A stretch of DNA of 64,000 nucleotides. Source: an uncultured Acidobacteriota bacterium. GTDB taxonomy: Bacteria; Acidobacteriota; Thermoanaerobaculia; Multivoradales; SZUA-115. Where the stretch lies: NCBI GenBank assembly GCA_963805975.1, contig CAWDVR010000002.1, positions 1,125,955-1,189,954 on the forward strand, in the 5' to 3' direction. Both the position numbers and the translations under genes were made by a program. Within the stretch, counting starts at the first letter, position 1. Each line of letters begins with the position of its first letter. The notes beneath the pieces were generated by a model. It had not been told where the DNA came from. It worked only from the letters and a program-made list of their open reading frames with translations, and did no database searches. This document shows, one piece after another, positions 13,116 to 22,844 of this stretch.

Positions 13116-14645
13116 TCAGGGATCGATCTTTTCTCGCCACGCGGCCGGCAGCCTGCTGATGGGCAGGATGTAGCCGAGCTGGGAGTAGACCTCGGCGTCC
13201 TCCACCGTGGCGGACGGTACGCCGATCAGGCGATAAGCGCCGTCGAGCGCCGCGCCGCCCGAGTTGCCGGAGCCGATCTCGGCATCGGTCTTCAGCACCA
13301 CGCCGGCCTCGGTGGTGTCGAAGCCGCTGATCACGCCTCGGGTCAGGGTCACCGACACGCGGCTGCCGAGCCCCCCGGCGCCGGGGAACCCCAGCACGGT
13401 CACCGGATCACCGATCGCCACCGCCTCGGAGCTGCCGCGTTCGAGGAACGGGAACCGGTAGCCGGCCGGCAGCTCCTGGCCGTAGAGACCGCTCTCGATC
13501 TTCACCAGCGCGAGGTCCAGCGCGCGGTCGGCCAGCACCACGCTGCCACGGAACAGCTCCGCCGGCGGCATCCTGGCGTCGAGGCACAGGCTCACCACCA
13601 GCTCTCCACTACCCGCCGGGTTGCCGGTGTCGTCCACCACCACGTGGAAATTGGTCAGCACCCAGCCGTCCGGAGAGACCAGCGTACCGCTGCCGCTGCC
13701 GCTCTGGGTCAGGATCTCGACCGTCGACAGGAGCGCGCGATCGATGCCCGCGGCCGGCTGGCGCAGCGTGGGGATCGAGAGCAGCTCTGCCGCCGGCTGT
13801 GCCGCGAAGCTGGCGTGGGCGGTGAAGCGGGCGAGGTCGAGCTGGAAGGGGTCGAAGACGCTCACGTACCAGGTGCCGGGGGCGAGCGGCGGGTCGCTCG
13901 CCTCGTCGATCAGCAGCGTCTCCCGGCCGAGCAGGCTGTCCGCCACATGGTCGGCATCCTCCGGGTTCAGCACCGCCTGGCCGCGCCGGGCCACCATGTC
14001 GAGGTCGCTCGTCACCTGGTCGAGATCGATGCGCAGCGCCGCGGCGCCCCGCGGCACGTCCACCGTGAAGGTGCGGAACCAGCCGCTGTCGGCGGAAGTC
14101 TCCATCGCCCGCGGCTCGCCGGGCACCAGGCGGCCGTCCACGCGGGAGCGGATCACGGAGGCGGTGATGGTGAATGGGATCTCGTTCACCCGTCGCTTGC
14201 GGATCCGCGGCTCCGCCTCCACCGTGTAGGCGACGTCCACGTAGTAGGTGCCGGGCACGAGCGGCGGCTCGCCGGAGCGCAGGATGGTGAGCGTGTCGTT
14301 GTAGAGCCGGGTCGAGGCCTCGTACTCGGCGTCCTCGTCGTAGTTGGCGAGCGGGCGGTCCCGGCGCGCGAAGAGGTCGAGGTCGACCGGCGCGTCCTCG
14401 ATCTCGAGGGTCAGCATCATGGCGTCGCCGGGCACCTCGACGATGAAGCTCTGCCAGAGCTGATCTTCCCAGTCGATGACCGCCGCCTTCGGCCGCCCCA
14501 GCTCCAACCGCGTGGCGCTTTCTTCGGCGTCCTCGGCCACGGGCTCCTGAGCCAAGAGCGGCGTGCCAAGGCCCGCGAGCGCCGTGAGGATCCCCAGCCA
14601 GGCCAACAGCGGACCGCCCGCGCAACGCCAAGGGCTCGATTTCAC
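13116..14645 (-). CDS. secreted trypsin-like (S1) serine protease with two N-terminal PPC-type domains
   Basis: Start set at the GTG at 14643-14645 ([32 protein letters not shown] signal peptide), because the longer track ORF (to 14930) reads through the tRNA gene. The catalytic triad context is present (LTNFHVV ... GNSGGA). Confidence 0.7.
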
Positions 14646-14664
14646 GCGACGAGTCTCCTGCCAA

Positions 14665-14694
14665 CAAAAAAGCGAGCCGCAAATGCGACTCGCT
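14665..14694 (-). terminator. intrinsic terminator following tRNA-fMet (minus strand)
   Basis: On the minus strand the stem is AGCGAG-C-CGC(AAAT)GCG-A-CTCGCT (plus-strand coordinates 14671-14694). It is followed by a T6 run (plus-strand A6 at 14665-14670), and sits 14 nt downstream of the tRNA 3' end. Confidence 0.5.
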
Positions 14695-14703
14695 TTGACT
14701 TGA

Positions 14704-14784
<81 letters not shown>

Positions 14785-14910
14785 TCACAAGGAGCGTCGC
14801 CGCTCCTCGAAGAACGGGAAGTATCCCAAAACTTGCCGGCGCTGTCAAAGTCCGGGCAGGGCCTGCGCGCCGCGGGCTCCGTCGAGGTGGCTGTACAATT
14901 CGCCGACAGG

Positions 14911-15543
14911 ATGCCTCCCCTGCCGCCCAACCAGAAGCGCGAGGAAGAAGCACAAAAGATCCTGGCGGCGCTGCGGGAGGGCTCGCTCAGCTTGGACCTC
15001 GCTTTCGATCGCCTCTTTCGCTCGCACTACGCCGCCGTCCGTTGGCTCTTCCGCCAGTGGCTTACCAGCCCGGAGGATCGTGAGGAGCTAACCCAGGAGA
15101 CTTTTCTCCGCATCTATCTGAGCATCGAGGCGTTTCGCGGAGATTGCAGCTTCAGCACGTACCTCTTCAAGCTCGCCAAGAACGTGTTCCTCGGGCACCG
15201 GCGGAGCAAGCTCGCCGAGAAACGCAGCGGCATCGAGGTTTCTCTCACGGGGAGCCCGGAGACCGGGGAGGAGCCGAGCACGGAGCCGCTCCCTCCCGTG
15301 CCGCCGGAGCAAGAGGATGCTGTGCTCCGAACGGAGCAGGAGAAAAAGTTGCTCGAGGTAGTGGGACAGATGCCGGATCAAAGACGCAAGTGCCTGATTT
15401 TGAAGTACTACCAGGATCGCAGCGTGCAGGAGATCGCGGCGCTGCTCCACCTCGCCGAGGGCACGGTGAAGGCGCACTTGCACCAGGGGCGAGAGCAGCT
15501 CCGAACACTTCTGGGGGCGGACGCGCTGACGGAACGGACCTAG
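14911..15543 (+). CDS. ECF (group 4) RNA polymerase sigma factor
   Basis: 210 aa from the ATG at 14911; the track start at TTG 14833 is less likely. Region 2 reads DREELTQETFLRIYLSIEAFRG. Region 4 reads RSVQEIAALLHLAEGTVKAHLHQGREQLR. Confidence 0.85.
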   Translation: MPPLPPNQKREEEAQKILAALREGSLSLDLAFDRLFRSHYAAVRWLFRQWLTSPEDREELTQETFLRIYLSIEAFRGDCSFSTYLFKLAKNVFLGHRRSKLAEKRSGIEVSLTGSPETGEEPSTEPLPPVPPEQEDAVLRTEQEKKLLEVVGQMPDQRRKCLILKYYQDRSVQEIAALLHLAEGTVKAHLHQGREQLRTLLGADALTERT

Positions 15544-15581
15544 ACCTTCGGGGGCGGGGGTTTCAGGAAAGCAGGTGGAAG

Positions 15582-16367
15582 ATGGCTCAGACACTGAAGA
15601 TCAAGACCCTGCTCGAGGGCCTGGCTCGCGAGCAGGGCGAGCCGGCGGCCGGCCATCCCAGCGACGAGGAGCTCGTCGAGTACGAGGCCGGCGAGCTGGA
15701 CCCGGAGGACTACCGGCGCGTTCAGGACCACTTGGTGGCCTGCGAGCCGTGCGCCCGTCTGGTGCTCGAGATCTCGCTCCTCGAGCCCAAAGCGCTCGAC
15801 GGCGAAGACCCGGTTTCCGAGCACGAGCTGGCGCAGTCGCTGCGCAGGATGCGAACCCGGCTCCCGGCGCAGCCGCCGCTCCGGGTGGTGGCGCAGCCGG
15901 TCAGGCCGGGCGGGACCCCCAACTGGTACAGAGCCGTGGCGGCAGGCCTTTCGGTGGCCGTGCTCGGGCTCGCGGGCTGGGTGGGGCTGCTGCTCTCCCA
16001 CCGCGGCGGCCCGGAGATCAACGCCTACGTCTGGAACCTGAACGACACCGGCACGCGGGGAGGCTTCGAAGAGGCCGATCTCGTGGAGGTGCCGGCCGGC
16101 AGCAACGCCGTGACGCTGTTGCTCTACGCCTCGAAGCTCGGCGAGCAGGGCACGCCGGAGTACGACGGCTTTCGCGTCGAGATCGCCGGCGCCGGCCGTA
16201 CCTGGAGCCGCGACGGCCTGCTGGTGGTGGGTTCGGGCTCGTTCTCCCTCACTCTGCCGAAGGACGATTTCCCAGCCGGCGCCTACAACGTGAGGATCCT
16301 GGGTACGCGCCAGGGCCAGCAGGAGGCGGCCCTGGCGACCTACACGATCGATCTGCGCTACGCCTGA
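15582..16367 (+). CDS. membrane-anchored anti-sigma factor with a ZAS-type zinc-binding motif
   Basis: 261 aa with an AGGTGG RBS. HLVACEPC (HxxxCxxC) sits about 45 aa from the N-terminus. A single TM helix (VAAGLSVAVLGLAGWVGLLL) precedes a ~110-aa beta-rich extracytoplasmic domain. It lies 38 bp after the sigma-factor gene. Confidence 0.7.
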   Translation: MAQTLKIKTLLEGLAREQGEPAAGHPSDEELVEYEAGELDPEDYRRVQDHLVACEPCARLVLEISLLEPKALDGEDPVSEHELAQSLRRMRTRLPAQPPLRVVAQPVRPGGTPNWYRAVAAGLSVAVLGLAGWVGLLLSHRGGPEINAYVWNLNDTGTRGGFEEADLVEVPAGSNAVTLLLYASKLGEQGTPEYDGFRVEIAGAGRTWSRDGLLVVGSGSFSLTLPKDDFPAGAYNVRILGTRQGQQEAALATYTIDLRYA

Positions 16368-16384
16368 GGTAGGCTCCGGCCGAG

Positions 16385-19300
16385 ATGCCTCGGTCCTCCA
16401 GCCGAGCGGCGATCGTCTTCCTGATTACGGCTCTGCTCGCCTTTCTCGCCGGCTACGAGAGAGCTCGACTTCCACCCGCCACTCGCCAAGGCCTGCTGAC
16501 CGCAACGCCGGCACCGGAACCAAGGCCCGCGGCGCGCTCCCTCCCGCTCGTCGCCGGCACCGAGATCCCGGCCATCCTGGCCGGCGGCGAGGCCCACGAG
16601 TACAGCCTTTCACTGCGAGAAGGCCAGTTCGTGGACCTCGAGGTCGAGCAGCAGGGCATCGACGTGATCCTCGAGCTCTACCAGCCCGGCGGCGACCTCG
16701 AGACCCTCGTGGACAGCCCGAACGATGCCTCGGGACCGGAGCCCCTGCTGCTGCTGGGCGAGGCGGCGGGCGAGTACCGTCTTTCGATTGCAGCAGGAAA
16801 CCCGGCAGATCCATCCGGCCGATACATCCTACGTCTCCTCGCCGTGCACGAGGCCGGGGCCGACGACCGCACCCGGGTCACCGCGGAGCGCATGTTCGCC
16901 AAGGGCGAAGGGCTGCGGCGCGCAGGAACCGCCGAATCCCTGACCGAGGCGATCGATTGGGACCGGCAGGCTCTCCTTCGGTACCGCAGCCTGGAGAGTC
17001 GTTCGCGAGAGGCGGATGTTCTCGTTGCGTTGGGAAGGGTCCACTCATTTCGCGATGACTGGCAGCAGGCACTCTCGGCATTCGAGCAGGCCCTTCCCAT
17101 ACTGCGAGAGGCCGGGCGAGGCGTGGACGAGGCGGCAACGCTGAACAACATTGGCCTGGTCCTCAACAAAACAGAGCAATCCCAACGGGCGCTCGACCTT
17201 TTCAGGCAGGCAGAAGCTCTATACCGGCGGTTTGGACACCCCCACCAAGCCCGCGCCCTGAGCAACATCGGCTGGGCTCACGAGAAGCTCGGCGACCTCG
17301 AGGACGCTATTCAGGCTTACCGCGATGCCTATACACAATTTCTCAGGTTGAGCGACTCGCCTGGCGCTGGAATCTGCATGCTCAACATCGGGGATCTTTA
17401 CTCCAGACAGGGTCAGACTGAGAGTGCGATCGATGCTTATGAAGAAGCTCGCGCTCGGCTCGAGAAGTCTCCGGACCGGCGATCACTTGCGCTGACCCAG
17501 ACGAGGCTCGGGTACGCACGCTACCGGTCCGGCCAGGCCGAACAGGGCCGAGAGCTCCTGGAGACCGCCCTGGAGATGCAGCGACGCCTGGGTGCACGAA
17601 GAGACGAAGCGATCTCTCACAACTCTCTGGCTCTCCTCCTGAGTGAGGCAGCCGAGACCGAGCTCGCCAAGCTCCACTATCACGAGGCTGCAGCCATCGG
17701 CACGGCGCTGGGCGACGAAGCAGAGCGCGCTGTGACTCTCGCCAACCTGGGGCATCTCGAGCTCGAGAGCGGCTCCGACGAAGCGGCCGAGGGCACATTC
17801 CGAGAGGCGCTGGCGACTTTTGCCCGGGTCGATTCACCCCTGGGCGAGGCCACCGCTCTCTTTGGGCTGGGGACGCTTCTCGCTCAGCAAGGCAAGCTGA
17901 GCGAGGCCGCATCGGTGCTCGAGCGGTGTACTCGCAGAGTCGAGGACGTGCGCAACGCGACGGCGAGCTCGGATCTGCGAAGGTCATTCCTGGCGCTCCA
18001 GCAGCCAACCTACGGGTTGTACATCGAAACCCTCATGAGGCTCCACGCGGCAGATGTGGACGCCGGGTTTGACCTGATGGCCTTCGAGGTCGCCCAACGT
18101 GTACGAGCGCGTGGCCTGCTCGACGACCTGCTGGCGTCCCCTGCGGCGCTGCGGAGAGACGGCCCCCACCCTCTGGTCGAGGAAGAAGCAGCCCTCAGCC
18201 AAGCAATCAACAGAACAGCAGAGGAACGTCAGCCCCTGCTCGCCATCCCTCGATCTCGACAGAAGGTCGACGACCTCGGCAAAGTACTGAGAGGGCAGCT
18301 CGCGGCTGCTGATCATCTGGAAGCAAGGATGCGGAGAAGCAGCACGGCCTTCCGCGAAACCATCTCGGCACCGGCTCAGACACTCGAAACGATCCAGCAA
18401 CAGCTTCTCGGCGCGGAAACCATCCTCTTGGAGTACGCTCTCGGCAACAACGAGAGCTACCTGTGGGCAGTGACTGACAGCTCGTTGTCGAGCTTCCGGC
18501 TGCCGCCGCGCCGAGAGCTCGAGGCGCAGGCAGCGGCACTGTACCGCGCGCTCTCGCTCGGGCCGCAGCCACTCGCTTCGGGTCAGACCGAGGCCTTGCT
18601 GAAAAAACTTTCAGAGACTCTCCTGGGGCCGGTGGCAGAGCTCGTTGGTGATCGGCGGATTCTGGTAATTCCCGATGGGGACCTTGCACTGCTCCCGTTT
18701 GCCGCCCTCCCCAGACCGAGCACAGCCGCCAAGGCTCATCAGAAAGCGGACTCGGAGCCGATCGCCACCGGGCACGAGGTGACGATACTGCCGTCCGCGT
18801 CGTCCCTCGCCTTCTTGCGGCGCAGATCTCGGGCGCGCTCCTCCGCCCCGGGGCTCCTGGCAGCGATCGGAGATGCGGTTTCCAACCCCGGAGACCTGCG
18901 GTTTCCCAGGCGACCTCCCGTCCCCCCCGGCTCACAGCTCATCCAGTTCCCGCGGTTGCCTTATGCACGAGCAGAGATGGAGCGAATTCTATCTCTCGCG
19001 GGTGAGGAGCCGAAGCTCGCGGCGTCAGGATTCGAAGCCAGCAGAAGCACGCTCATGACCGAGGTCCTGTCCAGATATCGAATCGTTCACTTCGCCACTC
19101 ACGGTGTCTTTGACCCCGAGTTCCCCGAGCTGTCGGCGATCGTACTGTCGACCTTCGATGCCAGCGGATCTCCCCGAGATGGTCTGGTTCGAGCCCATGA
19201 GCTGCGACGGATGAATTTCAACGCAGAGCTAGTCGTGGTCTCCGCCTGCGAGACCGCACGCGGGAAGACGGTGCGCGGAGAAGGAGTTGTGGGTCTGGCT

Positions 19301-19573
19301 CGCAGCCTGCTCTCCGCCGGGGCCCAACAAGCAATGGTCAGCCTCTGGGAGGTCGACGACCAGGCGACGGCAAACTTGATGGAAGAGTTCTACCGCGGCT
19401 TGCTGGTCGAGCGCCGTAGCGCTGCTGCAGCGCTGCTGGAAGCGCAGGCAGCCGTCGCCCGCCAGGAGCGGTGGCACTCTCCGTACTTCTGGGCCGGATT
19501 CCTATTGATTGGCGACGGGAGTGGTCTCGGCGCTAAACCGCACATTCCCCCGTCGCATCTGAGACGGAATTAG
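16385..19573 (+). CDS. TPR-repeat / CHAT-domain (caspase-fold, clan CD) protein with an N-terminal membrane anchor
   Basis: 1062 aa. The N-terminus IVFLITALLAFLAGY is hydrophobic, followed by a PPC-like domain. Multiple TPR-like repeats carry ALxNIG(L/W) cores. The C-terminal CHAT domain has a His/Cys dyad (IVHFATHGVFD ... LVVVSACETARG). Confidence 0.85.
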   Translation: MPRSSSRAAIVFLITALLAFLAGYERARLPPATRQGLLTATPAPEPRPAARSLPLVAGTEIPAILAGGEAHEYSLSLREGQFVDLEVEQQGIDVILELYQPGGDLETLVDSPNDASGPEPLLLLGEAAGEYRLSIAAGNPADPSGRYILRLLAVHEAGADDRTRVTAERMFAKGEGLRRAGTAESLTEAIDWDRQALLRYRSLESRSREADVLVALGRVHSFRDDWQQALSAFEQALPILREAGRGVDEAATLNNIGLVLNKTEQSQRALDLFRQAEALYRRFGHPHQARALSNIGWAHEKLGDLEDAIQAYRDAYTQFLRLSDSPGAGICMLNIGDLYSRQGQTESAIDAYEEARARLEKSPDRRSLALTQTRLGYARYRSGQAEQGRELLETALEMQRRLGARRDEAISHNSLALLLSEAAETELAKLHYHEAAAIGTALGDEAERAVTLANLGHLELESGSDEAAEGTFREALATFARVDSPLGEATALFGLGTLLAQQGKLSEAASVLERCTRRVEDVRNATASSDLRRSFLALQQPTYGLYIETLMRLHAADVDAGFDLMAFEVAQRVRARGLLDDLLASPAALRRDGPHPLVEEEAALSQAINRTAEERQPLLAIPRSRQKVDDLGKVLRGQLAAADHLEARMRRSSTAFRETISAPAQTLETIQQQLLGAETILLEYALGNNESYLWAVTDSSLSSFRLPPRRELEAQAAALYRALSLGPQPLASGQTEALLKKLSETLLGPVAELVGDRRILVIPDGDLALLPFAALPRPSTAAKAHQKADSEPIATGHEVTILPSASSLAFLRRRSRARSSAPGLLAAIGDAVSNPGDLRFPRRPPVPPGSQLIQFPRLPYARAEMERILSLAGEEPKLAASGFEASRSTLMTEVLSRYRIVHFATHGVFDPEFPELSAIVLSTFDASGSPRDGLVRAHELRRMNFNAELVVVSACETARGKTVRGEGVVGLARSLLSAGAQQAMVSLWEVDDQATANLMEEFYRGLLVERRSAAAALLEAQAAVARQERWHSPYFWAGFLLIGDGSGLGAKPHIPPSHLRRN

Positions 19574-19608
19574 CACCATCTATTCCTTCTGCTCGCAAAG
19601 GAGAGGCG

Positions 19609-19860
19609 ATGAGAACCAGTTCGCATCCGAAAGAAACTGATCAGGGGACGGCGGAGAAATCTACCAGCGTGACCAGGGTGGACCCGGGCTTTCCTATCGA
19701 GCAGGGAGCTGGGGGCCAGGGGTCGGGTGGCGGCACTCCGGCCAAGCCACCCAATCAATCGGACGGCGAACCCGGTTCGGTCAGCCCCAAGAAGCGCGTC
19801 CGAAAGATCAGGCGAGGAGCGGTCCCGAAGAAGGCCAGCCCGACCCGAAGATCGGCATAA
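19609..19860 (+). CDS. small low-complexity basic protein (hypothetical)
   Basis: 83 aa. An AAGGAGAG RBS lies 5 nt before the ATG. The sequence is Gly/Ser-rich with a basic tail (KKRVRKIRRGAVPKKASPTRRSA). It sits between two caspase-fold genes and no family is recognised. Confidence 0.35.
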   Translation: MRTSSHPKETDQGTAEKSTSVTRVDPGFPIEQGAGGQGSGGGTPAKPPNQSDGEPGSVSPKKRVRKIRRGAVPKKASPTRRSA

Positions 19861-20086
19861 CGTCGGACACCGCTTCCAAGGCTCGCGGCGCGGTCCGGCG
19901 GTCGTTTACCCGGCGCCCGCGCCGCCATTGCCATATCCTATGCCGCCAAGGCCATGACAGATCCTTGCTCGGTGTTCAACGGCATTCATGCCACGACGGG
20001 CCGCACCTTGTATCCGGCGCATCCGGTGAGGAGCCTGATTCACCTCGCAGAGCGGGAGAGGGGCTCGCCGATGCAGACCGGCCCTC

Positions 20087-21439
20087 TTGCCCCTCCTCGG
20101 GCTCGCGCGTCCTCGTGCGCAGGGGCTCCCCGCGGCCCTGCTCTCCGACTGCGACTTCAGGGACCCGGCCGAGGCCGGCTGGGGGGTGATCTTTTCCGCC
20201 CAGGCCGATCCCAAGGTTCGAGCGGCCCTCGCTCCATTGCTCGACCATCGCAAGGAACAGGTGACGCGTTCCAACGAGCGCCGATACCACGAGTTCTCGG
20301 GTGAGCTGGGCTACCAGAAGGGCGATACCAAAGCCAGGTTCCTCCATCGCCAGTGCGTGGGGCCCGGCGAGTTCGACGCCCTGCGCGTGCCCTACTACCT
20401 GCTCCTGGTGGGCGGACCGGAAGAGATCTCTTTCGGTTTTCAGGACAAGCTCGATCCCCGGTACGCCGTCGGCCGGCTCTGTTTCGATCGGGTGGAGGAC
20501 TACGCGCGCTACGCGGCCCACGTGGTCGCCACCGAGCAGGCGGCGAAGCTGCGCCCGTTACGCGCCACGGTCTTCGGGGTCGCCAACGCGGACGACCGCG
20601 CCATGGAGCTGACGTGCGAGTACCTGGCCAAGAGGGTCGCCACCAATCTCGCAGCCAAGGCCCAGGGCTTTGCAGTCGAGAAGGTGCTCGGGGTGGCCGC
20701 CACCAAGGACCGCCTGCGGCGCCTGCTGGGCGGCGATCAGACTCCCGACCTGCTCTTCACCACCTGCCACGGAATGGGTTTCGACGCCGGTGATCCGCGC
20801 CAGGAGATCGAGCAGGGCGGCCTCGTTTGCGCGGACTGGCCCGGTCCCTTGGCCTGGCAGAAGCCGCTCGACGCCAGGCACTACTTCACGGCGCGAGACG
20901 TGGGCGACGAGGCCCGCCTGGGTGGCTTGATCACCTTCCACTTCGCCTGCCACAGCGCCGGCACCCCGGATCACGACGCCTACGGCGAGCGCACGAACCA
21001 GAATCCCCGCCGCCTGGCGACCCGGCCCATGGTCGCCGGCTTGTGCAAGCGTCTTCTCGCTCACCCCGGCGGCGGCGCGCTGGCGGTGGTCGGCCACGTC
21101 GAGCGAACCTGGGGATACTCCTTCCTGTGGCAGGGCATCGGGCCGACTACGCAGGCCTTCGAGCGGACTCTCGAGAGCCTGCTCGCCGGCAACCCGGTCG
21201 GTTTCGCCATGGAGCCCTTCGCGGCCCGTGCTCACGACCTCGGCGAGGATCTGCGCGAGGAGGGAGACCCGGAGCGGGCGGCCATGCTGTGGACCGCGCT
21301 CCAGGACGCCCACAACTACATCATCCTGGGCGATCCGGCGGTGCGCCTGCCGGCACCGAAGCCGCCTCGGCTCCGGCCGCCCCCGGGGCCGTCGTCGCCG
21401 CTCTCGCGCCGGAAGCTCCAGTTCGGAGAAGCCGGTTGA
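20087..21439 (+). CDS. second caspase-fold (metacaspase/C14-like, clan CD) peptidase-like protein
   Basis: 450 aa. The putative dyad is LLFTTCHGMGFD (His) and LITFHFACHSAGTP (Cys), spaced ~63 aa apart; the metacaspase motif is D[AS]CHSG. The start is uncertain, since the track uses a TTG at 20087. Confidence 0.55.
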   Translation: MPLLGLARPRAQGLPAALLSDCDFRDPAEAGWGVIFSAQADPKVRAALAPLLDHRKEQVTRSNERRYHEFSGELGYQKGDTKARFLHRQCVGPGEFDALRVPYYLLLVGGPEEISFGFQDKLDPRYAVGRLCFDRVEDYARYAAHVVATEQAAKLRPLRATVFGVANADDRAMELTCEYLAKRVATNLAAKAQGFAVEKVLGVAATKDRLRRLLGGDQTPDLLFTTCHGMGFDAGDPRQEIEQGGLVCADWPGPLAWQKPLDARHYFTARDVGDEARLGGLITFHFACHSAGTPDHDAYGERTNQNPRRLATRPMVAGLCKRLLAHPGGGALAVVGHVERTWGYSFLWQGIGPTTQAFERTLESLLAGNPVGFAMEPFAARAHDLGEDLREEGDPERAAMLWTALQDAHNYIILGDPAVRLPAPKPPRLRPPPGPSSPLSRRKLQFGEAG

Positions 21440-21446
21440 CGACTGG

Positions 21447-22844
21447 CTACTGCAGATAGCCCAGCGCCCGCAGCCGGTCCTCCGCCTCCTTGCCCAGCAG
21501 CAGGCTCTTCTCCGAGGCCGCCGAGCCTTCGATCCTCACCAGCCGCTCGTAGAGCGCTCTCTGGAGACGCTCGAGCTCTGCGGGATGCCGAGCAGACAAG
21601 TCTTCGAGCTCGCCGGGGTCCGCGGCGAGGTCGAACAGGGCGAAGGTGCGGCGCGCCATGTCGTAGAGCAGCTTCGAGCGCCCGTCGGTGACGCTCCGCC
21701 ACTCGCCCTGCGAGCTGAAAGCGAGCCGCGGAGCGTCCTCACCGGGCGGGGCCTGGGAGCCGAGCCAGGGACGCAGGCTCTCGCCCGCGGGCGCCCAACC
21801 GCCCGACGCGCGGGCATCGAGCCCCGCCAGGTCGAGCAGCGTGGGTGCAAGATCGAGGTTCGAGACGGCCCCCTGCACGCGCCTGCCGGCCGCGCCGTGT
21901 GGAGTCCGGATCAGCAACGGCGTCCGGACCTGGGTGTCGAACGGCGCATGGCAGTGCTTCACATCGCCATGCTCGAGGAAGGCCTCGCCATGGTCGGACG
22001 CCAGGACGAGGACCGTGCCGCCCGCCGACCGGGAGCTCTCGAGCGCCGCCAGCAGGCGCGGCAGCTCGCTGTCGAAGTAGGCGATCTCCTCGTCGTAGAG
22101 GTCGACCAGGTGCTGTAGCTGGTCGGCGCTCACCGGCGACGGCTGGCCGTGCTTGTAGAGGGCGTCGGCGATCGGGTTGGGGTCGCCGGCGAGCACGAAA
22201 TCCGGCGCCTCGATGGGCAGCGCCCAGCGCCTGGGGTGCCGCTCCGGAGGCCGGTAGGGCCCGTGGGGCTCCATGAAGTGGAGGTAGAGGAAGTAGGGCG
22301 GCCCGAGGCCGGGCAACAGCGCTTCGAGGCGGCCGTTCACGCAGTCGGCCGACTGCCACAGGCACTGCTCGTCGAAGATCTCGAAGCCGCGGTCGAACCC
22401 CCCAGCCGGGTTGAAGCGGGTGGGAGACTTGCGCACCACGGGGCTCGCGGACACGGCGGCGGTCGTGTAGCCCGCGTCACGAAGCACCTCCGCCAGCGAC
22501 GGAACGGTCTCCGGGATGCCCAACCGCCCACCCTCCTGCCCCAGGAACACCAGGGGATCGCGTGAGGTGAGGAGGGAGTTGACGGAAGGAAACGTGCAGC
22601 TCGCCTGGGCGCGCGCCTGCTCGAAGAGCACCGCCTGCCGGGCGAGCGCATCGAAGTTCGGGCTGGTCTCTCGAGCGTAGCCGTAGGCGCTCAGGTGATC
22701 GGCGCGCAGCGTGTCGACCACCACCAGCACCAGGTTGGGCTTGGGCGCGGGAGAGGCGGGAGAAGGTGAGGGCGGCTCCCCGCCGCAACCCATCCAGGCG
22801 GCACCGGCGAGCCACCAGGAGAGCGAGCGCGCGAAACGCCGCAT
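21447..22844 (-). CDS. sulfatase-family lipoprotein (alkaline-phosphatase superfamily)
   Basis: 465 aa. The lipobox is LAGAAWMGC. LVLVVVDTLRADHLSAYGY is the sulfatase N-terminal metal-binding region. The candidate FGly motif SCTFPS is non-canonical. Confidence 0.75.
   Translation of the reverse strand: MRRFARSLSWWLAGAAWMGCGGEPPSPSPASPAPKPNLVLVVVDTLRADHLSAYGYARETSPNFDALARQAVLFEQARAQASCTFPSVNSLLTSRDPLVFLGQEGGRLGIPETVPSLAEVLRDAGYTTAAVSASPVVRKSPTRFNPAGGFDRGFEIFDEQCLWQSADCVNGRLEALLPGLGPPYFLYLHFMEPHGPYRPPERHPRRWALPIEAPDFVLAGDPNPIADALYKHGQPSPVSADQLQHLVDLYDEEIAYFDSELPRLLAALESSRSAGGTVLVLASDHGEAFLEHGDVKHCHAPFDTQVRTPLLIRTPHGAAGRRVQGAVSNLDLAPTLLDLAGLDARASGGWAPAGESLRPWLGSQAPPGEDAPRLAFSSQGEWRSVTDGRSKLLYDMARRTFALFDLAADPGELEDLSARHPAELERLQRALYERLVRIEGSAASEKSLLLGKEAEDRLRALGYLQ

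Follow-up and report, generated by a model that had tools for sequence, protein, structure and literature searches.

The 64,000-nucleotide window analysed here (the whole stretch of DNA, from an uncultured Acidobacteriota bacterium) carries a plus-strand cluster of five genes, and positions 19609-21439 hold the last two of them. The first encodes a sigma factor of the extracytoplasmic function (ECF) type (14911-15543); the second, a single-pass anti-sigma factor (15582-16367); the third, a membrane-anchored TPR-CHAT protease (16385-19573); the fourth, a micro-protein of 83 residues (19609-19860); and the fifth, a gingipain-like (C25-like) protease whose reading frame is interrupted in this assembly. 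The Pfam matches of the first three genes place the sigma factor, a zf-HC2 anti-sigma factor and the TPR-CHAT protease directly 5′ of the 83-codon open reading frame (ORF) and on its strand. An earlier note, made from the letters alone, had seen in the last two genes a metacaspase-like protein and a tiny basic ORF, and had suggested a protease cascade, a pseudo-protease or a substrate. Below, other loci are denoted by L numbers and proteins by P numbers.

The ORF at 20087-21439 (+) has a TTG start and 450 codons. Over residues 103-421 its product scores 32.5 bits with Pfam Peptidase_C25 (PF01364; cutoff 23, E 7.3e-8), and many of its homologues carry the same precomputed match. No sequence similarity to solved structures was detected in the PDB. 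The AlphaFold2 model, based on 70 homologues, has a predicted local distance difference test (pLDDT) of 90.2 and a predicted template-modelling score (pTM) of 0.89, and presents the gingipain-type catalytic fold, in which an N-terminal subdomain is followed by a caspase-like C-terminal subdomain; the C-terminal part of the modelled proteins is helical and not a beta-sandwich. More distant fold matches were separase (16.5), SAVED-CHAT (15.0), the Craspase TPR-CHAT (14.5), DdvA (13.8), metacaspases (about 12) and caspases (about 10). The caspase fold of clan CD expected by the earlier note is therefore present in the model, but its type is that of the gingipains (C25) and not of the metacaspases. 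We predict that the protein is a clan-CD cysteine protease of the two-subdomain gingipain type, as described for C25 (PMC4357240).

The two motifs from which the fold had been suspected are both there: C227-H228-G229 occupies codons 20765-20773, and A287-C288-H-S-A-G begins at 20945. Their His-to-Cys spacing is 60 residues and not about 63. The putative catalytic His (H228, in TCHGMGF; codon 20768-20770, +) follows strand 222-226, and the putative catalytic Cys (C288, in FHFACHSAG; codon 20948-20950, +) follows strand 282-286. In a profile-profile comparison with CHAT domains, both residues aligned with the CHAT dyad in a single register, at a probability of only 19.8%. H228, G229 and C288 are invariant across the 70 homologues, and since these residues stand after core strands the family is not one of pseudo-proteases, as had been considered. 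The invariant D170 (codon 20594-20596), which comes after strand one in the caspase-like subdomain, is a candidate S1-pocket Asp, which would confer specificity for Arg or Lys at P1. A third invariant Cys, C248 (20828-20830), lies in the invariant segment QG..C.DWPG between the catalytic His and Cys, on an insert that gingipains lack.

TPR repeats and a hydrophobic N-terminal segment were sought in the 450-residue product and neither was found, in agreement with the first description, and none of 68 C25 homologues (0/68) has a hydrophobic N-terminus. The protease is predicted to be cytoplasmic and non-secreted. Clan CD also includes PorU, the legumain-type ligases and GPI transamidase, and the protein might be a transpeptidase or ligase, or might serve to process a single dedicated partner, with no hydrolytic effector role. 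We give this alternative hardly any weight: the nuclease and trypsin fusions of the family, described below, would fit dedicated processing, but no sequence feature tells ligase from hydrolase chemistry.

The database search returned more than 4,500 homologues of the 450-residue protein, most of them about 475 or 650 residues long. The four closest (72-76% identity) start with MTDPxSVFNGIHATTG..., and the window encodes this beginning too, starting at ATG 19954 and in a frame other than that of the 450-codon ORF. Alignment of the DNA with the orthologous loci revealed one extra base of the window within GCCCCTCC. Every single-base deletion between 20060 and 20124 was then tried and scored; the best deletions were the four C bases at 20090-20093, and removal of any one of them yields a protein of 494 residues, 75% identical to P0002 from end to end. 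At about 20080 the signal from G+C content at third codon positions (GC3) passes from the first frame into the second, and no Shine-Dalgarno sequence was found ahead of TTG 20087. The real gene is thus 19954-21439, with a corrected product of 494 residues; in this assembly a single inserted base breaks it where a disordered linker is encoded. Its true 5′ part (19954-20089, +), recognized by the orthologue N-termini and the DNA alignment, encodes an N-terminal module beginning MTDPCSVFNGIHATTG... and the start of the linker; the frameshift site is the run of four C bases (20090-20093, +), one base longer than in the orthologues; and the remainder, which is the annotated ORF (20087-21439, +), encodes linker and the gingipain-fold catalytic domain. 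The doubt that had been raised about the TTG start was justified, since the orthologues place the start at ATG 19954. Part of the spacer at 19860-20087, previously said to hold low-complexity ORFs in other frames, is real coding sequence.

Programmed frameshifting was considered and rejected, because every orthologue is in frame at the C run. The insertion is either a homopolymer assembly error or a very recent inactivating mutation, and the annotated 450-residue protein is either a frameshift artefact or a fresh pseudogene. If the insertion is real, the C25 gene would be a genuine pseudogene without a functional protease, and the module would be decaying or working without it, a possibility that we take seriously even if we lean the other way. 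The frameshift stands in the deposited assembly, whose public annotation calls only the 450-residue product (P0001), and TTG 20087 is, as said, unaided by a Shine-Dalgarno sequence. The neighbouring genes are long uninterrupted ORFs that look intact, and widespread indel errors are not apparent. The GC3 of the cluster is also below that of its neighbours, as expected of an acquired, dispensable island. On the other hand, the insertion lies inside a homopolymer, the commonest site of sequencing errors, and 3′ of the shift 450 codons remain open, with a GC3 of 0.86 and 75% identity to the orthologue, so any inactivation would be very recent. A pseudogene in this genome would, moreover, be compatible with the explanation that we propose for the family.

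The intact orthologue P0004 gives a view of the part that the annotation of the window misses. In its AlphaFold2 model, residues 7-40 form a short strand pair and a helix at pLDDT 80-91; residues 43-59 are a linker at pLDDT below 50; and the catalytic domain follows. The N-terminal module is conserved family-wide, the linker is variable, and both the frameshift and the TTG 'start' of the window fall within the linker. N-terminal self-inhibition is the rule in clan CD, several enzymes of which are kept latent by an N-terminal piece (PMC4357240). By analogy with these, the conserved, tethered module may hold the C25-like protease in a latent state.

The library search delimited 3,066 clusters (50% identity) at E <= 0.001 and 1,579 at E <= 1e-30. 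The 80 species-level loci belong mainly to the Acidobacteriota (Thermoanaerobaculia, Holophagales), to the Nostocales and other cyanobacteria, and to the Chloroflexota, with further loci in the Planctomycetota, Actinomycetota and Proteobacteria; the nearest among the species representatives scanned is a Thermoanaerobaculia metagenome-assembled genome, at 72% identity. We scanned 92 sources, with flanks of up to 10 kb, using hidden Markov models made from the window proteins. A CHAT ORF was present in the fetched flanks of 66 of the 92, within 3 kb in 56, and on the same strand within 600 nt in 36; the 26 sources without CHAT are mostly short contigs. Overlap of C25 with the beginning of a CHAT-nSTAND1-WD40 gene is seen in cyanobacteria. 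Pfam also identified multidomain members, with the architectures nSTAND1-C25-TPR, CHAT-nSTAND1-C25, C25-CHAT and CHAT-C25, as well as tandem C25 copies and nuclease-type fusions (C25-Trypsin_2-Endonuclease_NS in P0150 and P0152, and C25-Endonuclease_NS). Two clan-CD proteases in tandem under one ECF system had appeared unusual; given this linkage to CHAT and these fusions, the pairing is the norm of the family and no oddity of the locus. The arrangement with the ECF module, small ORF included, recurs too, in about 20 species-level loci: sigma, anti-sigma and N-terminally anchored TPR-CHAT genes adjoin the C25 gene in 20 of the 92 sources, and nearly all of those 20 that have a named taxon are Acidobacteriota. 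The module is on the strand of C25 in 14 of the 20, and upstream of it in 13. Loci L001 and L002/L012 are syntenic with the window at every gene, the sulfatase and methyltransferase genes that lie downstream being among those that match, and L092 presents a tight same-strand array of sigma factor, anti-sigma factor, lipoprotein TPR-CHAT, micro-ORF, CHAT-SIR2, nSTAND1-WD40 and C25.

Some variations on this organization were also observed. Two tandem C25-like genes, with about 64% mutual identity (P0005 and P0004), occur in the closest relatives, L002 (5293-8333) and L012 (9716-12840), where the window has one, and a DUF6265 gene that the window lacks lies between C25 and sulfatase in L001 and L002. 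In three loci outside the Acidobacteriota (L009 8654-9970, L003 6563-7921 and L007 7315-7983), a protein of 222-452 residues without a Pfam match is encoded directly 5′ of C25 on the same strand, and may be another conserved partner. About one third of the listed homologues, those of about 650 residues (e.g. P0017 and P0066), carry after a low-complexity linker a C-terminal extension of 70-200 residues that has no Pfam match and is missing from the window protein and its clade.

The micro-protein gene (19609-19860, +; ATG start) is preceded by the Shine-Dalgarno sequence AAGGAGAGG at 19598-19606 (+), the strong ribosome-binding site already pointed out for this ORF, which is conserved in L001; a strong one also precedes the equivalent ORF in L002, L015, L016 and L092. 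By itself an ORF of 83 codons is not significant in DNA of 70% GC, where 99 ORFs of at least 50 residues occur in 14 kb. In many loci with a TPR-CHAT of the ECF-module class, however, an ORF of 39-95 codons begins 40-100 nt past the CHAT stop, usually with a strong Shine-Dalgarno sequence. The conserved core of its product is the motif D-P-G-F-P-I-E, residues 25-31 of the window protein (19681-19701, +), recognized by pattern counts and alignments. It reads DPGFPIE in the window and L001, DGDFPIE in L015, DPDFPIE in L016, DPDFIIE in L092, DPDFPTE in L053 and GNFTIE in L002/L012, while L073, L087 and L023 have weaker forms. Six matches to the pattern DP[DG]F.[IT]E were counted among the 2.15 million six-frame residues of all loci, against about 0.1 expected (a rough figure from amino-acid frequencies), and all 6 are in the ORF directly after TPR-CHAT.

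A short ORF no more than about 100 nt past the TPR-CHAT stop, with the motif and then a Gly/Pro-rich stretch, is found in the window and likewise in L001, L002/L012, L015, L016, L053, L092 and L093; in the last of these it again follows a TPR-CHAT gene, and no sigma gene lies upstream. A profile search of 5.8 billion proteins returned 12 clusters, all of 39-85 residues and none with a family assignment, among them a subfamily of the form MKLESP...LDGDFPIEGDGG...PPPPPP; homologues have thus been called as genes in other metagenome annotations. It is this conservation in other loci, and not ORF length or codon signal, that makes the micro-protein real, and the guess that the ORF is more than noise has held. 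Its basic C-terminus is there as well, with 11 Lys/Arg in the final 30 residues; this tail is confined to the window's own clade, and the feature shared across loci is the DP[DG]FPIE motif. The micro-protein is, judging by these comparisons, a new small family and a partner of TPR-CHAT rather than of the C25 gene. Its seven-residue motif may be of the kind bound by a peptide-recognition domain or a protease active site.

We also considered that 19609-19860 is untranslated and acts as a conserved RNA or DNA regulatory element between TPR-CHAT and the next gene. The codon-position GC pattern of the micro-ORF is weak (0.58/0.63/0.68), and its substitutions against L001 fall 31/31/41 by codon position, with only a slight excess at the third; both figures speak against a coding sequence. 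Between 19574-19635 and L001 4910-4972, the 35 nt from the CHAT stop to the start of the micro-ORF are identical at 31 of 35 positions, and together with the first 8 codons they are better conserved than the rest of the ORF. This stretch may be a translation-initiation or RNA element. An element in place of a protein is nevertheless very unlikely, because an open frame, a start codon and a strong Shine-Dalgarno sequence are kept where the DNA no longer aligns; because conservation is at the level of the peptide, DP[DG]FPIE being written with different codons in different surroundings; and because the motif stays in frame while the ORF varies between 39 and 95 residues.

A different conserved peptide (..DGS.V.P.P.[DE]ATSMG..; motif VPxPxDATSMG) follows TPR-CHAT in five loci (L062 6424-6624, L065 7334-7459, L069 12411-12608, L077 4844-5008 and L080 13896-14273; all −) and may be a diverged form of the micro-protein. 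A second small gene, for a lipoprotein of 134-151 residues (...WWNYT..G..YPPE.RG.VVHLEI.F...), lies between micro-ORF and C25 in some Acidobacteriota loci (L011 9553-9957, and 3′ of the micro-ORF in L023 and L087) and is absent from the window. The idea that the micro-protein mimics a site on the anti-sigma factor ('DDFPAG' in the window, 'DPRDFPDHE' in L092) was dropped, since that segment is a structural LP...PG.Y.RL strand without a conserved DFP motif.

The three upstream genes form the regulatory part of the cluster. The sigma factor (14911-15543, +) matches Pfam Sigma70_r2, Sigma70_r4_2 and Sigma70_ECF; its likely start is ATG 14911, and the frame is open from TTG 14833. The anti-sigma factor (15582-16367, +; start MAQTLKIK) matches zf-HC2 and consists of an HxxxCxxC zinc-binding domain, a single transmembrane helix and, in the periplasm, a domain of about 120 residues; the motif and the helix are kept across an alignment of 21 orthologues. 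The TPR-CHAT protease (16385-19573, +; 1062 residues) matches Pfam CHAT (2.4e-67) and TPR families and retains its dyad, with the His in ATHG (residues 904-907) and the Cys in SACE (residues 953-956). It has a hydrophobic N-terminal anchor, which in many orthologues is a lipoprotein signal (e.g. VVAAC in L092). A PPC-like domain, typical of exported proteins, is present in the TPR-CHAT of the ECF module. No SAVED domain was found by Pfam in the window CHAT protein, no second CHAT gene within the 64 kb, and no CRISPR (clustered regularly interspaced short palindromic repeats) or CBASS (cyclic-oligonucleotide-based anti-phage signalling system) genes flanking the cluster. A scan for sigma-70 promoters and terminators detected none between the CHAT and C25 genes. 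PADLOC matches, the anti-sigma factor left aside, were limited to TPR and a weak BovA, and no NCBIfam model matched the C25-like protein or the micro-protein.

From these elements we propose the following mechanism. The exported TPR-CHAT and the single-pass anti-sigma factor would constitute an envelope sensor, a split version of DdvA/DdvS, that frees the ECF sigma factor; there is a precedent in DdvA/DdvS itself, where an ECF sigma factor with a periplasmic TPR-CHAT anti-sigma controls defence genes (PMC11506125). The freed sigma factor would then have the cluster expressed, and with it the C25-like protease of the cytoplasm. This protease would be made in a latent form, held inactive by the 40-residue N-terminal module on its flexible linker, and would remain so until it cuts the linker itself or, where one is encoded, a cytoplasmic partner protease does so. 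Once free it would provide the output of a conflict or stress system by cleaving proteins of the cell or of an invader; a coupling of peptidase cascades to NucA nucleases has been described (PMC7159879). The micro-protein would probably use its motif to bind one of the proteases, for which it would serve as bait, pseudosubstrate or adaptor. In the source genome the protease would have been inactivated by the frameshift, unless the frameshift is an assembly error. Taken as a whole, the identities of the cluster genes together with a sigma-controlled, cytoplasmic and latent protease, this explanation appears to us moderately probable.

Several observations weigh against it, beside the weak coding signal of the micro-ORF. 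A search for the canonical ECF promoter (GAAC, 14-19 nt, CGT or GTC) 5′ of 23 sigma genes gave one unconvincing match, and sigma control of the cluster is therefore assumed from gene order only. In 6 of the 20 loci the ECF module is convergent with C25, that is, not co-transcribed with it. The micro-protein has no export signal, though its constant neighbour TPR-CHAT is exported. The C25 protein, the micro-protein and two orthologues had no match in PADLOC, so a defence role is one of association only.

A more direct relation between the two proteases, close to the cascade imagined in the earlier note, would be that the adjacent TPR-CHAT cleaves the C25 linker and thereby activates the C25-like protein, with the micro-protein as inhibitor or first substrate. 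The experimental precedent is SAVED-CHAT, a CHAT protein that activates a second caspase-like protease, PCaspase, in a cascade that also has a sigma factor and a small inhibitor (10.1101/2023.06.23.546230); the adjacency or fusion of two clan-CD proteases throughout the family, and the disordered linker after the N-terminal module, would agree with such a step. But the anchor or lipobox and the PPC-like domain of TPR-CHAT contrast with the missing export signals of the C25 family and the micro-protein, and where a second, cytoplasmic or membrane CHAT is encoded (L011, L015, L053 and L092) it is the more plausible partner; the window has none. Since sequence signals place TPR-CHAT outside and the C25 protein inside, we judge this cascade unlikely within the locus. 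By analogy with SAVED-CHAT, it is plausible in loci where a cytoplasmic CHAT stands beside the C25 gene. The sensor mechanism that we prefer can also be extended, more speculatively and with a rather low chance of holding in full, to a two-compartment protease system: TPR-CHAT and the split anti-sigma factor would sense an envelope or phage cue, the sigma factor would induce a cytoplasmic gingipain-fold 'executioner' that becomes active only once its 40-residue N-terminal plug has been cut away, the micro-protein would set a threshold as a pseudosubstrate in the manner of securin, and the C25-like domain would be a general protease module, overlooked until now, of conflict systems with CHAT, STAND and NucA in bacteria of multicellular type.

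Comparison with known systems delimits what is shared. RgpB and Kgp, the gingipains of Porphyromonas gingivalis (MEROPS C25), resemble the window protein in the Pfam match and in having His and Cys at the ends of consecutive strands; according to the models, the window family also has an N-terminal segment by which the enzyme could be kept latent. Sequence identity is about 15%, and the signal peptide, the 200-residue prodomain, the Ig-like domain and the type IX secretion C-terminal domain of gingipains are all missing here. The His-to-Cys spacing is about 23-33 residues in gingipains, against 60 in the window protein with its C248 insert. Gingipains are secreted virulence factors, whereas the window family is predicted to be cytoplasmic and is encoded next to CHAT and STAND genes in Acidobacteriota, Cyanobacteria, Chloroflexota and others.

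In the SAVED-CHAT/PCaspase locus of Haliangium ochraceum, a type III-B CRISPR system, one cluster likewise encodes a CHAT protease, another protease of caspase fold, a sigma factor and a small protein. Its second protease is of family C14 and not C25; its sensor is a cytoplasmic SAVED domain binding cyclic tri-AMP, in place of an exported TPR-CHAT with an anti-sigma factor; and its small protein PCi is described as a CI-2-like inhibitor, while the micro-protein is a peptide of low complexity that carries a short motif. The DdvS/DdvA pair of Myxococcus xanthus (PMC11506125) shares with the window an ECF sigma factor, a zinc-binding transmembrane anti-sigma, an extracytoplasmic TPR-CHAT and, on our proposal, control of downstream conflict-system genes. 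In DdvA, however, TPR-CHAT is fused to the anti-sigma, whereas here the two are separate genes (15582-16367 and 16385-19573), TPR-CHAT having its own anchor and the anti-sigma factor its own small periplasmic domain. The DdvS regulon comprises CBASS and CRISPR, and fused DdvA-like proteins are reported only from Myxococcota and one Comamonas species (PMC11506125); here the neighbours are the micro-protein and the C25-like protease, and the split form is found in Acidobacteriota.

In the type III-E Craspase (Cas7-11, TPR-CHAT Csx29, Csx30, Csx31 and an ECF sigma factor), a TPR-CHAT is similarly linked to an ECF sigma factor and small partners, one of which is a substrate. Csx29 is cytoplasmic, the described loci have no C25-like protease, and no Cas7-11 adjoins the window cluster. 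Separase and securin offer an analogy only: a helical-repeat, caspase-like protease is accompanied by a small disordered protein with a possible pseudosubstrate motif, but here the micro-protein and the protease appear to be in different compartments. The NucA-peptidase/STAND conflict systems known from multicellular bacteria (PMC7159879) share building blocks with the family, in which the C25-like domain is fused to Trypsin_2 and Endonuclease_NS, nSTAND1 and CHAT, and they have the same phyletic spread (cyanobacteria, Chloroflexota, actinobacteria and others). Their description makes no mention of a C25 or gingipain-like domain (PMC7159879), and neither a nuclease nor a STAND gene is present at the window locus.

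It is becoming apparent that bacterial immunity uses caspase-like proteases as its switches and executioners, as in Craspase, SAVED-CHAT/PCaspase and protease-effector modules (PMC12642450). To these the present analysis adds a large family of gingipain fold, predicted to be cytoplasmic, that gene order and fusion tie to CHAT, STAND NTPases and NucA. Searching the literature for C25 or gingipain in connection with CHAT gave no relevant result, and in the literature covered we found no description of this non-secreted variant of the gingipain family in its recurrent genomic partnership. If the proposal is correct, enzymes of gingipain type, which are known as secreted virulence factors, would also take part in regulated proteolysis within the cell. 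The micro-protein, with its seven-residue motif and its place after one class of exported TPR-CHAT genes, gives a handle on what the sensor proteases bind. For the source genome the practical result is smaller, and concerns the status of the annotated 450-residue protein.

The cluster is bordered upstream by a tRNA-Met gene (14708-14784, −) and downstream by a convergent sulfatase gene (21447-22844). Its GC3 (14911-21439) is 0.81 in the sigma gene, 0.72 in CHAT, 0.68 in the micro-ORF and 0.86 in C25, against 0.89-0.96 in most flanking genes, which hints at horizontal acquisition of the cluster. The tRNA-Met gene has its own sigma-70-like promoter-like site (14848-14820) and a terminator-like site (14696-14669), gene and promoter together occupying 14708-14848 (−). 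The N-terminal part of a 604-residue ORF (13116-14930, −) crosses this gene, as does the sigma ORF when read from TTG 14833, and both N-terminal extensions are therefore probably spurious. The tRNA-Met gene sits between the sigma gene and a gene for a secreted trypsin-like serine protease (Trypsin_2, PPC; 13116 to about 14560, −). Trypsin-like genes are also near C25 genes in L007 and L011, and the one beside the cluster could be a coincidence or a member of the same system.

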